This document shows, one piece after another, positions 4,281-9,955 of a stretch of 64,000 nt of DNA (position 1 is the first letter of the stretch; every line of letters begins with the position of its first letter). The stretch covers positions 40,486,001 to 40,550,000 of the forward strand of contig OX597834.1 of the NCBI GenBank assembly GCA_951406725.2. Direction: 5' to 3'. The notes below the pieces were generated by a model. It saw only the letters and a program-made list of their open reading frames with translations. It was not told where the DNA came from and made no database searches. A program made the translations under genes and the position numbers. This DNA is from Octopus vulgaris. Its lineage: Eukaryota.

Positions 4281-4967
4281 AGATAATGTCCTCATAGGTT
4301 TACCATCCATTTCATATTGTCTTCCCAACAAGATGAAGTTAACGGAAGGTCGGCAACAGCAACAGCACCCACAACAACAACCACAACAACAACAAGAAGA
4401 CCAACAGTGACAATGAATTGCTAGTAGTCACCTAGAGAGAAGGGTAGATGGAGAGTCGGGTAGGGGAGAAGACTGGAGGAATGTTACAGATCGGAAGAGT
4501 CAGAAGCATACACACACGCACAGCCGCAAATACACACATGTACACACACTCCTACGAAACAGACACACACAAACATACACACACACACACACACACACAC
4601 ATGGGGGCATGTGTGTATTATTATTATTATATACGATACGAATATTACAGGCAAACCCGCACAGAAGAGGGACATAAATACACATTGCGATAAGATAAAG
4701 GAATTGGGTAAAAACCTATGAGAAACACAAGGAATGAGGTGGCGCGTATGAAGAGGATGTATATGTGCGTGGGTACGCGCGTGTGTCTGTGTATGCACAG
4801 ACATATACATATATATATATAAGTGTGTGTATATGTATAGACAACAAAAGAATTCCGTATATATATATATATATACACATAACTTAGAATAACTTAGAAA
4901 GGTTTTTGGCCAGTATTGGCCCAGGCCATGTCTAACTTAATAGCACCACCTGGCGAAGTCTTTCAGT

Positions 4968-7900
4968 TCAGGATTTGGGCACCAAGGCCCATTCGAGCAG
5001 AGAGTTATTGTTTGCGGAGACATATCCGGGTGTGGATGGTTTGTCCGGTACTGTTTGAAGGAATTTGTCCAAAGACTTCTTGAATTTTGTGTGGTCAGTT
5101 TCTTTTTTGACGTGTCCTGGTGTAATGTTGAAGAGAGCGGGTCCAATTGAGGTGAAATAGTTGTGCCGTATTGTCGTTATGTGATGCGATTTAGATTTTT
5201 GTTGTGGACGGATGGCACGTGGTCCAAGCCTTGGATGCATTTTGAAGGTGATGCCAACATCATTCGGACAGTGCTGATGGAATATTTTCCACATCATACA
5301 GATAATGTAGCGTTCACGGCGTCGTTGGAGTGAATACAATTTCAGCTTCTCTAGTCTACCCCAGTAGTCAAGGTCTGACATGCCATCTATCTTTTTTGTG
5401 ATTGACCTTTGGGGAGCTTCAATTCTCATAATATTTTGTTTTGTGTAGGGAGACCACAGTGGACAGCAGTATTCAAGGTGGGGTCGGGCAAAAGTGGAGA
5501 AGAGAAGGATAATATTGTGGGAATCTCTCGACTGGAAGGTTCTGAGAATCCAGGAACACATTCTGCAGGCCATGTCAACTTTGCTGCTTATATGTGTAGC
5601 CCAGCTTATGTTGTTGTCCACTGTTACTCCCAGGTCTCTGATGTTGTTGGATGCCATGAGAATTTCTCCAGAAGGAAGAGAGTATGGGAGTTTCAGAGCG
5701 TCCTCCCTTCCAAAGTGGATCAGTTCGAATTTGTCTTCATTTAGCAACATGTTATTCTTTTCCGCCCATTGGACAACAGCTAGTAGGTCTGACTGAAGGT
5801 TTATTCGGTCATCCACGCCATTGATGACCTTCTGGAGCTTGGAATCATCAGCGAAGGTTCTGATGTTGCTGTGTTTGATGGTGTCAGTAATATCATTTAT
5901 GTAGATGATGAAGAGAAGTGGGCCCAACACAGTGCCTTGTGGGACACCACTGCTGACTTTGGCTGGGCTGGATTTGACTCCTTCGACTACAACATGTTGG
6001 GTTCTGTTAGAGAGGAAGCACTTGATCCATTGCAGCAGCTTTCCAGTGACACCAATATTGGACAGCTTTCTCAGAAGGATCTTATGATCAACCCTGTCAA
6101 AGGCCTTGCTGAAATCAAGGTAGATGACATCAGTGTTGGAACCCTCTCCCAAGGCTCTCAAAATGTCATCAAAATGATGCAGTAGCTGCGTCAGGCAATC
6201 TCTCCCATTACGGAATCCATGCTGGTTGGGGTTCAGCATATTATGACTCTCAAGGAAGTGAGTCATACGCGATCTCAGCACCCTCTCAAATACCTTGATG
6301 ATATGAGAGGTGAGTGAGATTGGACGGTAATTCACGGCAAGCGATTTGTTTCCTTTTTTGAAAACTGGGACAACAGACTGGGATAGAAGGTCTTCTGGTA
6401 TATATCCAGCATCCAATGAGTTCCGCCACAGATTGGCTAGAGGGGGTGCAAGTTGGTTTTGACACATCTTCAAGACACAAGCAGGGAACCTATCGGGACC
6501 TACTGCTGAATTATGCTTCATTTCCTTTATTGCTGCTAAGACATCAGGAGCGCCAAATGTTATGTCCGATAAAGTGTATTGGGGAGTAACATCACTGATA
6601 CAGCCCAGATCAGTCATATCAGGATTGCTGAAAACAGAGCAATATTGTTTCTGCAATATTTCTCCCATGGTTTTGGCATTGTCTTGAAGAATACCATTTT
6701 CATCAATCAGAGGGCCAACAGCAGAACCAGTGACTCTGTGTTTTTTTGCAAATGAAAAGAACACTTTGGGATTGAGTTTGATCTTCTCAATGGCCCAGGC
6801 CTCTTCAGCTCTTCGCTGACTATTGATGATAGACATCATGTTGTTTTGGAGTTTATGTTTTTTAATCTCTAGCGACGAGATGGCAGTCAGGTTGGTGTGT
6901 TGCTGTTGACAGTATTTCAGCATGTTGATCTTTTTGTTGATTCTTTTAATTTTCCTTATGAGAGATTTTCTATTTCTAGGGATTCGACACTTAGATTTGT
7001 TTGCAGATCTTAATGGGGTGTGTCTTGCACATATGTTCGTGATGGTGTCTACAAGTGACTGCCAGGACTTTTTGATGTTAGTGGGTGTGTATGTGTGCGT
7101 GAAGGACCAATCGACTTGTGCAAGATCATTATTGATCGCTTCCCAGTTTGCATTGTGGAAATCCATAGTGTCAAATGGATGAACAGGAGGGATGACATTT
7201 GTTTTGCATTTTGGCCAGTGAAATCTCAGATCACAGAGAACCATGTCATGGTCGGAGAGTAGGGTTTTCTCCACTGCAATATTGTGGATAGTATCAGTGT
7301 GATTGCTGAAAATTAAGTCTAAGACGTTTTTGTGACATCTCGTTGGTTCGAGTACCAGTTGGGACAAGAAGAAGTCATCCATGAAGTCAAGAAGCGATTC
7401 CACTGCCTCCCTGTCAGGGGTTGAGAGAGAAGAACCTGGCGGCAGACTGTTTATAGACCAGTCAACCCCGGGAAGGTTGAAATCTCCCATCATTAAAATG
7501 TTGTCAGGTTGACACTGCTGAATGAAACACTTTATGCTGTTGAGGCATTCCTTGAAGCATGGTACGGGCGTTTGGGGTGGTCTGTAGAGCCCAACTACTG
7601 TTAAGTTGTTGGTTTGACTGAATACAGCGACTGCTTCGCAGTATCCATTCGAAAATATGTTCATGGCTTCTGTTGAGAATGAATCATGGACATAAATGGC
7701 AGTCCCACCCTTTCTTCTGCCAACACGATCAGCACGAATGGTTTTGAAATTTTTAACTTTCACCTCGGCTTCCAAGTGGAGGTCACTAAGATGGGTTTCA
7801 GTGAGGACGAAGAAAGGGATGTGGTTTGGATGGGCCTCGACCCAGTCCTCCAGGAATCTTATCTTCCATTTTTGTGTATTGGTGGAAGGGCTGATGCCTT

Positions 7901-7985
7901 GGGCATTAAGCAGAAATGTTGAGGCGAGAGTGGATGGTTTTAATTGTTTTGGTGATTTGTTTATTTGATTGCTTTTTAATGGCAT
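4968..7985 (-). CDS. LINE ORF2: apurinic-like endonuclease + reverse transcriptase (1005 aa)
   Basis: APE motifs LLNAQG, LTETHL, GLYRPP, MGDFN, LDLIF, LSDH. RT motifs PVFKKG, NYRPISL, QHGFR, YLDFSKAFD, SGVPQG, FADD, RDLGV. C-terminal RPHLEY and LYSLQRRRERY typical of the CR1/L2 group. Confidence 0.97.
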   Translation of the reverse strand: MPLKSNQINKSPKQLKPSTLASTFLLNAQGISPSTNTQKWKIRFLEDWVEAHPNHIPFFVLTETHLSDLHLEAEVKVKNFKTIRADRVGRRKGGTAIYVHDSFSTEAMNIFSNGYCEAVAVFSQTNNLTVVGLYRPPQTPVPCFKECLNSIKCFIQQCQPDNILMMGDFNLPGVDWSINSLPPGSSLSTPDREAVESLLDFMDDFFLSQLVLEPTRCHKNVLDLIFSNHTDTIHNIAVEKTLLSDHDMVLCDLRFHWPKCKTNVIPPVHPFDTMDFHNANWEAINNDLAQVDWSFTHTYTPTNIKKSWQSLVDTITNICARHTPLRSANKSKCRIPRNRKSLIRKIKRINKKINMLKYCQQQHTNLTAISSLEIKKHKLQNNMMSIINSQRRAEEAWAIEKIKLNPKVFFSFAKKHRVTGSAVGPLIDENGILQDNAKTMGEILQKQYCSVFSNPDMTDLGCISDVTPQYTLSDITFGAPDVLAAIKEMKHNSAVGPDRFPACVLKMCQNQLAPPLANLWRNSLDAGYIPEDLLSQSVVPVFKKGNKSLAVNYRPISLTSHIIKVFERVLRSRMTHFLESHNMLNPNQHGFRNGRDCLTQLLHHFDDILRALGEGSNTDVIYLDFSKAFDRVDHKILLRKLSNIGVTGKLLQWIKCFLSNRTQHVVVEGVKSSPAKVSSGVPQGTVLGPLLFIIYINDITDTIKHSNIRTFADDSKLQKVINGVDDRINLQSDLLAVVQWAEKNNMLLNEDKFELIHFGREDALKLPYSLPSGEILMASNNIRDLGVTVDNNISWATHISSKVDMACRMCSWILRTFQSRDSHNIILLFSTFARPHLEYCCPLWSPYTKQNIMRIEAPQRSITKKIDGMSDLDYWGRLEKLKLYSLQRRRERYIICMMWKIFHQHCPNDVGITFKMHPRLGPRAIRPQQKSKSHHITTIRHNYFTSIGPALFNITPGHVKKETDHTKFKKSLDKFLQTVPDKPSTPGYVSANNNSLLEWALVPKS

Positions 7986-9202
7986 GTGTAGTGGGGTAAT
8001 AGTGGTGGATGGCGGTGGGTGATAGCTCGGATGTTTTTTTCCAGTTCTTTTGCTAGATTCATTATAGCTAAAAAAGAGGAAGAAGAGGTGGTTTCCTGTC
8101 TAGGGAACCGCAGGTGACTGTGGCTGCGGCTATTTTTATGTGAGTGGTTATCTTTAAATGTCCGACGAGTCCCCGGGAGATGGGTAAAGGGGCAATCCCT
8201 GTGCAAACACAATCTGTCTCGCTGGGAATAGCGGCAGATTTGGGGATTCCTTGTTTGAGATATTGGTGGTTGTGGTGATGTATTATGGTGGTTGCTGTTG
8301 TAGTTTGTGGGGATAGAGCGTTTTGTTCCAGGTAAATGGGTGAATTTGCAGTCTCTATCAGTGCACAGTCTATGGCGAAGAGAATATCGGCAAATGATGG
8401 GGTTTCGAGTGGGTGTGTAGGTGCGTGTATGTGTGTGAGCTGTGAAAGGTGTAGATGATAGTTTGAAGTTTTGGCGACCTTTGTGACCTGTAGGAGGTAA
8501 ATTCCTTGAGATAGCATTAGTAGTAGTAGCTGTAGTAGTAGTAGTAGTAGTAGGTAGAAGAGATGTTGACGGTGGTAATGATTGAGGAGGTCGATTCCAA
8601 GACAAAGATGTTTGTCGATATATAGTGGGAGTAGTACTAGTAGTAGTAAGCAGAGGAGATGGTGTTGACAATGATGATGATTGAGCTGCTGGGGCAGTGA
8701 AAGGAAGGGGTGGTGCTTCCTGCTGTGTGACCCTGATGACTGGGGGGTCAATCGTTTCATTTAGCAAATCGGCCATTGTAGATGAATCAAGGAGTGGTTC
8801 ATCCTGTTGTTGTTGTTGAGGTTGTTGTTGTTGCCTCTGAGGTTGTTGCTGCTGAAGTTGTTGTTGTTGCTGTAACTGTTGTTGTTGTTGTTGTTGCCGC
8901 TGAGTTTGTTGTTGTTGAGGTTGTTGTTGTTGTTGTTGCGCCGGTGATGCGTTGGAAGAGAAAACAGATCTCAGTTTATCGAAGTGTTTATTTATTAATT
9001 TAAAAGCAACTTCGATTTGTTTTAATTTATTTTGGATCTGCTGTTCAGATCGAGTTTGCAAATGGTGAACTGTTCGTTTAGCAATTTCGTTCAGACACGA
9101 AGCACCTATGCTCTCTGTTTCGGTAAGGCCATGCCATGTGTTGATAAGAACGTCGACTTCATTATCAGACCAGTTTTTGTTGGATTTTTGGTGGCTAGCC
9201 AT
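7976..9202 (-). CDS. LINE ORF1 (408 aa): Myb/SANT-like N-terminus, polyQ and S/T/P-rich linker, two CCCH zinc fingers
   Basis: WSDNEVDVLINTW...IAKR...RSEQQIQNKLKQI fits a trihelix/Myb-like pattern. Repeated ICRYSLRHRLCTDRDCKFTHLPG and ICRYSQRDRLCLHRDCPFTHLPG (C-x8-C-x4-C-x3-H). Lies directly upstream of, and overlaps, ORF2. Confidence 0.88.
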   Translation of the reverse strand: MASHQKSNKNWSDNEVDVLINTWHGLTETESIGASCLNEIAKRTVHHLQTRSEQQIQNKLKQIEVAFKLINKHFDKLRSVFSSNASPAQQQQQQPQQQQTQRQQQQQQQLQQQQQLQQQQPQRQQQQPQQQQQDEPLLDSSTMADLLNETIDPPVIRVTQQEAPPLPFTAPAAQSSSLSTPSPLLTTTSTTPTIYRQTSLSWNRPPQSLPPSTSLLPTTTTTTTATTTNAISRNLPPTGHKGRQNFKLSSTPFTAHTHTRTYTPTRNPIICRYSLRHRLCTDRDCKFTHLPGTKRSIPTNYNSNHHNTSPQPPISQTRNPQICRYSQRDRLCLHRDCPFTHLPGTRRTFKDNHSHKNSRSHSHLRFPRQETTSSSSFLAIMNLAKELEKNIRAITHRHPPLLPHYTCH

Positions 9203-9955
9203 TCTGGTTGATATGTTTTATTAAATTTTATTTTGTTCGTTCGTTTTGTTGATTACTTTTAATTATTATTATTATTTTTTTTTTTTTTTAAGGAGAAGTA
9301 TGTAGAATTGATTGTACAGAATGTTTGTTGTAATACTGAGAAGTTTGTATTTGAATTATGAGCTTGTAGTTATTTTATCTTTCTTTTCTTTTTTTTCCCC
9401 TCTTTTTCTAATTTTTAATGTGTGGGTGATCCTTTAGTTATCAGAAGGTGTTTGAAAATATTTGGTCGTTTGAAAATTATGAAAATAGTTTGTGGTTAAG
9501 GAAAAGTCTACTCACGAGTTGGGAAAAAGCGTGGTTTCAAATATACAGGAATATATGTGATGGTCAATTACGACGAATGTAGCTGTGAAGCTTGCTGCTG
9601 ACCGGCGCAGAGAGGAATGTATGTATGTATGTATGTATGTATGTATGTATGTATGTATACACACACACATTCATGCATATATATTTTTAAGAATACATAT
9701 ATGTACATTCTTACATACATACGTACATACAAACATGCATGCATGTATGTATACATATATGCACATATATATATATGTATAGAGGTGTGAGCGCTGATAC
9801 GTACATACACACACACACATACATTTATATATATATGCACACATACATACATACATACATACATACATACACACACATACATACATACACACATACACAC
9901 ACACATACATACATACATACATACATACATACACATACATACATACATACATACA

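Follow-up and report, generated by a model that had tools for sequence, protein, structure and literature searches.

A full-length non-LTR retrotransposon with overlapping ORFs

The 64,000-nucleotide stretch of the Octopus vulgaris genome analyzed here (the window) contains, on the minus strand, a full-length, young non-LTR retrotransposon, denoted family A, that occupies approximately positions 4880..9617, with the 5' limit placed from the similarity among three copies, which ends at 9616. The element is flanked by microsatellites, and its 3' end consists of short tandem repeats; the ends are approximate, and no target-site duplication is discernible, with both ends located within microsatellites. 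The first gene, ORF1 (7976..9202, minus strand; ATG at 9202, TAA at 7978-7976, within a frame that is open from 9217 to 7976), encodes a predicted protein of 408 amino acids that consists of a Myb/SANT-like N-terminal domain, a linker with poly-Q and Ser/Thr, two CCCH-type fingers and a short C-terminal tail that is conserved between families in the tail alignment. The Myb/SANT-like domain (8975..9178; residues 14-81 of the open frame) matches the Pfam family PF13837 (Myb_DNA-bind_4) with an E-value of 1e-4 and a score of 23.1 bits, under the cut-off of 27. The first finger (8336..8392), with the pattern C-x8-C-x4-C-x3-H, was read off the translation; the second (8180..8236), with the same spacing, was recognized from the translation and a weak Pfam match, and the Nab2-like CCCH match in ORF1 (E 0.006) is likewise under the Pfam cut-off. 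A search of the ESM Atlas yielded no usable match for ORF1, and a protein word-index search returned 8 homologues.

The ORF2 frame (4968..8099, minus strand; 1043 codons) is shifted by -1 relative to ORF1, with codons that begin one base 5' of those of ORF1, and encodes a linker, an APE endonuclease and a reverse transcriptase. The endonuclease Asn codon is at 7907-7905, the endonuclease match in Pfam spans 7865-7248, and the reverse transcriptase is located at 6353-5622, with PF03372, PF14529 and PF00078 all exceeding the Pfam cut-off; Pfam searches gave no match to RNase H in ORF2 and none to a protease domain in this element. The succession of APE and reverse transcriptase in ORF2, along with dispersed copies, many of them 5'-truncated, and the simple-repeat 3' end, identifies an APE-type non-LTR retrotransposon. 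The 3' UTR (4880..4967, minus strand) is mostly common to the sister family B and terminates in short tandem repeats, not in poly(A); the 3' UTRs of A and B are nearly identical over about 40 nt but carry different terminal short tandem repeats. The copies inspected (window positions 4967-4880 and loci L071-L073) adjoin microsatellites of the (TA)n type, a location suggestive of a target preference.

In accord with the preliminary description of this sequence, ORF2 is in the -1 frame, is closed upstream by a TAG (8100..8102), runs through 38 codons before its first Met at 7985 and overlaps ORF1 by 124 nt, all of which was confirmed on the minus strand. Both heptamers singled out in that description also stand in the phase of ORF1, namely, U_UUU_UUA (T_TTT_TTA in the DNA; 8069..8075, ORF1 Phe377-Leu378, 24 nt past the TAG), which is the candidate -1 shift site, and A_AAA_AAC (8033..8039). 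The ATG (7983..7985) lies 7 nt ahead of the ORF1 stop and is made by Thr and Cys codons of ORF1.

A search of the 2.8-Gb host genome produced 804 candidate copies, 40 of which were scored; all 40 are 98-100% identical, so that family A is young, and the junctions at 30 loci show scattered point changes and five T-run indels, and nothing else. Because copies that similar provide no test of junction conservation, conservation within family A was dropped as a criterion. When the ORF1 peptide is recoded synonymously, the window copy acquires an in-phase heptamer within the first 75 nt with P 0.50, and its -1 frame stays open with P 0.39. The junction signal of the family A copy alone is thus not beyond chance, and the shift-site signal comes from the relatives of this element.

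Conservation of the heptamer in the clade

Family B, found by a Myb-domain search of the host genome, has an ORF2 that is 80% identical to that of A, an open -1 overlap of 127 nt and U_UUU_UUA in phase. In all 15 aligned copies of this family, C_AAA_AAC replaces the second heptamer and CTG replaces the ATG; the first Met of the family B ORF2 is codon 205, deep in the endonuclease and far past the endonuclease Asn (codon 67). Family C is represented by one intact junction, in a copy that is broken further on, with the heptamer in phase and CTG where A has the ATG; in L076, an older C-like copy, the T run has decayed. Family D (62% identity) has the heptamer 3 nt past the -1-frame stop, and 25 of its 26 junctions keep six T (the 26 were recovered from 37 search loci, the others being family A, truncated or diverged). 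The family D ORF1 (L257:944-2290) combines a Myb-like N-terminus with about seven CCCH-like fingers, compared with two in A. Beyond the host genome, U_UUU_UUA is in phase in the metagenomic relatives L101, L104, L105 and L106, with 37-42% ORF2 identity. Thus, in 9 of the 9 junction types of the clade, the heptamer, which is the shift site of HIV-1, is in phase, and no stop interrupts the -1 frame between the heptamer and the end of ORF1. The candidate shift site lies 32-89 codons ahead of the ORF1 stop, and the overlaps extend over 124-280 nt. A stop in the -1 frame is located 3-12 nt ahead of the heptamer in 7 of the 9 junction types (L072, L186, L257, L101, L104, L105 and L106), with a distance of 24 nt in A and 51 nt in C.

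In a quick tree from which C was left out, A, B, D, L101, L104, L105 and L106 group together with SH-aLRT support of 100, and the same group without D has FastTree support of 1.0; these trees hold unnamed loci only, without named reference elements. Given the peptide, the chance of the exact heptamer is 0.004-0.048 per junction, and the product over D1 and the four metagenomic rows, multiplied by hand, is about 3e-9. In comparison with A, D has an identical-codon rate of 0.46 and the four metagenomic rows have rates of 0.34-0.40, and TTA accounts for only 7 of the 96 Leu codons of ORF2 in A, 2 of 91 in B and 11 of 102 in D. With the synonymous distance near saturation and TTA rare, plain inheritance of the codons is a poor explanation, and by these comparative measures the candidate site U_UUU_UUA is conserved beyond the peptide requirement.

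The second heptamer fails the same comparison: A_AAA_AAC is found in family A only, with C_AAA_AAC in B and no counterpart in C. Of the two shift sites initially claimed, then, the alignments retain U_UUU_UUA, so that the clade has one conserved candidate shift site, not two; A_AAA_AAC, rejected as a second site because it is family-specific, is probably incidental.

Junctions of distant LINE relatives

A metagenome scan detected 80 loci, of which 37 were retained and 43 dropped (37 lacked an 800-codon ORF, 5 lacked an upstream ORF and 1 remained open up to the end of its contig). Among the 37 distant LINEs, ORF2 is in the -1 frame in 26, in the +1 frame in 6 and in frame in 5 (P 5e-6 against one third, with the lineages treated as independent, which they are not, as in all P values for the distant LINEs). 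An in-phase canonical heptamer occurs in the first 75 nt of the overlap, a limit set once the data had been inspected, in 22 of the 28 -1 junctions when A and B are included and in 20 of 26 without them. For the 28, the background of the elements themselves predicts 1.7, and synonymous recoding that holds the ORF1 peptide fixed predicts 6.7 (P 3e-14); in the two other phases, heptamers are present in 2 and 3 of the 28. In the group with A_AAA_AAC, much of the signal can be attributed to the conservation of an Ala-Lys-Asn-Leu peptide (per-locus P 0.37-0.56). The heptamers of the distant relatives are A- and G-rich, and the domains of their ORF1 include PHD or esterase. Two rows of the 37-row scoring, L123 and L159, are broken copies that were mis-parsed, and L136 and L137 were scored as not -1, yet have U_UUA_AAC adjoining a stop.

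The canonical heptamer is lacking in 6 of the 28 -1 junctions, 3 of which have G_GAA_AAC in phase. In these three loci (L109, L129 and L144), G_GAA_AAC is found within the first 40 nt of the overlap, where close relatives have G_GGA_AAC or A_AAA_AAC, and precedes a common ORF1 peptide resembling [YF]xFxV[VI]G, making it a candidate non-canonical shift site. In a separate branch (L158, L173, L178 and L179), the junctions are +1 or in frame and lack a heptamer in phase, which indicates that the translation strategy varies by lineage.

RNA structure around the site

A 3' stimulatory structure is typical of retroviral-type frameshifting, though not universal. We folded 70 nt starting 5 nt past the site and, with minimum-energy folding, detected no conserved 3' stimulator across 25 junctions (median z 0.0) and no conserved structure 5-9 nt downstream of the heptamer. 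The preliminary description had already remarked on the missing strong downstream stem-loop in this element, and the folding bears this out (at stimulator spacing, z -0.6 and +0.6 in one calculation and -0.1 and +0.6 in another). A hairpin with the heptamer in its 5' arm is predicted in the window copy (8039..8081, z -2.4), not at stimulator spacing. Hairpins including the heptamer are confined to families A (z -2.5), B (-5.9) and C (-2.3) and absent in D and L101-L106 (z +0.6 to -0.7); a hairpin that spans the heptamer would be melted once the ribosome occupies the site. Strong hairpins at classical spacing were found only in L111 and L132, and in B a strong hairpin is directly adjacent to the site. 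In L111 (1413-1520) and L132 (1614-1700), which are relatives with an esterase ORF1, the heptamer, an ORF1 stop within 3-6 nt and a strong hairpin (z -2.4 to -3.4) make up the classical layout and spacing with a short overlap.

A candidate -1 frameshift and its alternatives

Two features expected of a -1 frameshift site, namely, a canonical heptamer that is in phase with the upstream ORF and a -1 frame that stays open beyond it, are present throughout the clade. We consider it likely that low-level -1 ribosomal frameshifting at U_UUU_UUA gives rise to an ORF1-APE-RT fusion protein of about 1411 amino acids, and the inference of a gag-pol-like fusion made in the preliminary description is supported by the heptamer and the stop-free -1 overlap that persist in related families. 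The observations behind this reading are that the heptamer is in phase and conserved, that no start codon is conserved, that no spliced copies were found and that fused copies are rare. Most ribosomes would read ORF1 through to its stop and produce the 408-residue protein, whereas a small share, while their Phe and Leu tRNAs occupy the heptamer, would shift one base backwards and continue to the ORF2 stop. The resulting fusion (378 + 1033 = 1411 residues) would retain the Myb and CCCH domains and carry the linker, with about 55 residues before the endonuclease, and APE-RT in place of the ORF1 tail. With no conserved 3' RNA stimulator, the shift efficiency is probably low. LINEs are thought to need a low ratio of ORF2 to ORF1 products, and a low shift rate would fit such a ratio.

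In its predicted mode of action, the candidate site most likely works like retroviral gag-pol frameshifting minus the conserved 3' stimulator. Common to this element and the retroviral and coronaviral systems are the X_XXY_YYZ heptamer in the phase of the upstream ORF, the -1 overlap and the polymerase encoded downstream without a conserved start. The differences are that this is a non-LTR element; that minimum-energy folding reveals no conserved stem-loop 5-9 nt downstream; that, unlike in the retroviral type, the shift would occur 32-89 codons before the ORF1 stop, excluding the conserved ORF1 tail from the fusion; and that no protease domain was found, so that the fusion is presumably not self-processed.

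Among the alternatives, the one that fares best, although we deem it improbable, is termination-reinitiation, whereby ribosomes would terminate at the TAA of ORF1 and reinitiate at the ATG located 7 nt before it (CTG or TTG in the sister families), releasing a free ORF2 protein. Coupled restart is described for SART1 in passages of PMC3894237, PMC5972666 and PMC10275272 and proposed for L1 in PMC5972666, which gives UAAUG coupling and a downstream structure for the former and a 63-nt spacer for the latter; in a passage of PMC5009743, L1 ORF2 initiation is said to be independent of its AUG. Like SART1 and mammalian L1, the present element would have a bicistronic LINE RNA and scarce ORF2 protein, and the AUG of family A adjoins the stop; unlike in those elements, ORF1 and ORF2 share a stretch of 124-280 nt, and conservation does not extend to the AUG. 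The ATG that had been put forward in favor of reinitiation is real in A, where it is kept in 68 of 73 locus records (some of them duplicated), and missing from the sister families, so that only 1 of the 9 junction types has an ATG near the ORF1 stop. Near-cognate codons are present within 30 nt of the stop in B, C and D1 (CTG or TTG at -7 to -10) and in L105 (only ACG, at -13), but the xTG triplets near the stop are by-products of ORF1 Cys codons, and a start codon at or near the stop is not conserved. In D2, L104, L105 and L106, that is, in 4 of the 9 junction types, the Leu-Asn codons of an endonuclease motif form the ORF1 stop, such that a restart there would cut off the first strand of the enzyme. 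The nearest upstream in-frame ATG is 58 nt away in D2 and 139 nt away in L104, more than the separation of up to 29 nt that is quoted for some viruses in passages of the literature, and L105, L106, B, C and L101 have no in-frame upstream ATG. The UGGGA motif is absent from the approximately 150 nt ahead of the stop in A, B and D. Reinitiation, moreover, does not account for the conserved heptamer or for a frame that is already open 32-89 codons ahead of the stop. Restart may nevertheless serve as a second route in A and also in B, C and D1.

That no recoding signal exists at all, with Phe-Leu kept for an ORF1 helix, the codons inherited by chance and ORF2 produced, for example, by internal initiation, we regard as very unlikely. 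Between A and B, conservation is higher in the ORF1 tail than in the -1 linker, and A alone is within chance, as this explanation would have it, but the exact codons persist over a near-saturated synonymous distance, and the heptamer enrichment survives the peptide-preserving null.

Splicing, in which the pyrimidine run and the AG at 8069-8068 would serve as a 3' splice site joined in frame to ORF2 from an upstream ORF1 donor, is even harder to credit. A good polypyrimidine-AG is found in A, B, C, L101 and L104, most of which also have a TRA triplet shortly upstream, so that the acceptor noted in the preliminary description holds for A; it is missing, however, in D, where the heptamer is followed by C (CTG) so that there is no AG, and in L106, where ATG follows, and the heptamers of the distant relatives are A- and G-rich. 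Spliced RNA should be copied into the genome, yet a pattern search of the host genome, for post-AG sequence with a non-T three bases upstream (a T-bearing donor exon would escape it), found no spliced copies against 381 intact junctions: the three candidates (1 + 2 pattern matches) are one 5'-truncated copy and two point variants.

Transcriptional slippage, whereby RNA polymerase would add one U in the T6 run to yield an in-frame fusion mRNA, can be set aside with comparable confidence since, although the T run is unstable, with 103 copies one T short that recur across the family B tree, the instability runs towards deletion, the fusing +1 length occurs in only 9 copies and -2 in a few, +1 RNA copies should dominate if they were the source of the ORF2 protein (given cis preference, the RNA that yields this protein is expected to be the one copied), and the conserved terminal A and the other heptamer types would be left unexplained.

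The T6 run (window positions 8075-8070) is, in its own right, a hotspot of recurrent one-base deletion in family B and A junctions (e.g., L066:1700-1800 and L214-L233), with 103 five-T copies versus 381 with six or more. Of the five-T copies, 96 of 100 among the matches listed belong to family B, in which a perfect 7-bp hairpin immediately follows the T run; other T5, A6 and A7 runs are far less variable than the T6 of the shift site. The hotspot is possibly caused by reverse-transcriptase slippage, although it may be an assembly artefact. The idea that the five-T copies of family B constitute a subfamily that uses a +1 shift at UUU-stop was rejected: T5 and T6 copies interleave in every subgroup of the family B tree, as expected of recurrent errors. 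In L017, L039, L069 and L070, ORF1 and ORF2 are fused into frames of 1416-1468 codons through the loss of two bases from the T run; these fusions look sporadic.

Relation to known elements and implications

The element resembles the Jockey/CR1 group (CR1, L2, Daphne, Crack and others) in having an APE-RT ORF2 without an RNase H match and a short-repeat 3' end, and differs from it in the Myb and CCCH domains of ORF1. In the literature searched, which included few subscription papers and did not include Repbase Reports, we found no description of a conserved slippery site in animal LINEs. Early accounts of individual LINEs from insects and fungi noted that the ORFs overlap and that a frameshift might be involved. 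The closest precedent comes from Dictyostelium, where, according to a figure legend in the review PMC5911963, ORF2 of both TRE5-A and TRE3-A requires a -1 frameshift; the passages of that review that bear on these elements contain neither a slippery site nor an experiment. TRE5-A and TRE3-A are amoebozoan, tRNA-gene-targeted, L1-type APE LINEs, whereas the present clade resides in an animal genome and its site was identified by conservation. For Paramecium LINEs, a +1 shift, restart or read-through is suggested in part of PMC5405496. Passages of PMC5009743 name HeT-A among non-LTR elements, favor unusual initiation for mammalian L1 and list shifty heptamers. By word look-up, Myb, CCCH, frameshift and overlap are absent from the accessible text of the ORF1 survey PMC4120745 and of PMC13343379, and the word frameshift is absent from that of PMC11203168 and PMC10294476; the available portions of PMC5006619, PMC1965478 and PMC1925062 hold nothing on this point. 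Passages of PMC3894237 and PMC5009743 treat the translation of LINE ORF2 as an unsettled question. The cases that have been worked out involve restart.

The conserved seven-base site makes a retrovirus-style answer to this question testable. We also entertain, more tentatively and with a confidence that falls a little short of even, a wider proposal, namely, that in much of the CR1-like radiation of LINEs the reverse transcriptase arises by -1 frameshifting as part of a gag-pol-like fusion of ORF1 and ORF2, which in the present clade would form at a bare, stimulator-free U_UUU_UUA, at a level possibly set by the element's own RNA-binding, CCCH-containing ORF1 protein. Under this proposal, the ORF1 half of the fusion would also tether the enzyme to its own RNP. 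If the frameshifting reading is true, many annotated LINE ORF2 proteins would be mis-started; of 150 database homologues, 59 have their start within the endonuclease, a weak hint given that fragments behave alike. The active enzyme would then carry the Myb and zinc-finger domains of ORF1. A stimulator-free site that is kept across lineages at about 40% protein identity would, furthermore, be a natural model of basal -1 slippage.
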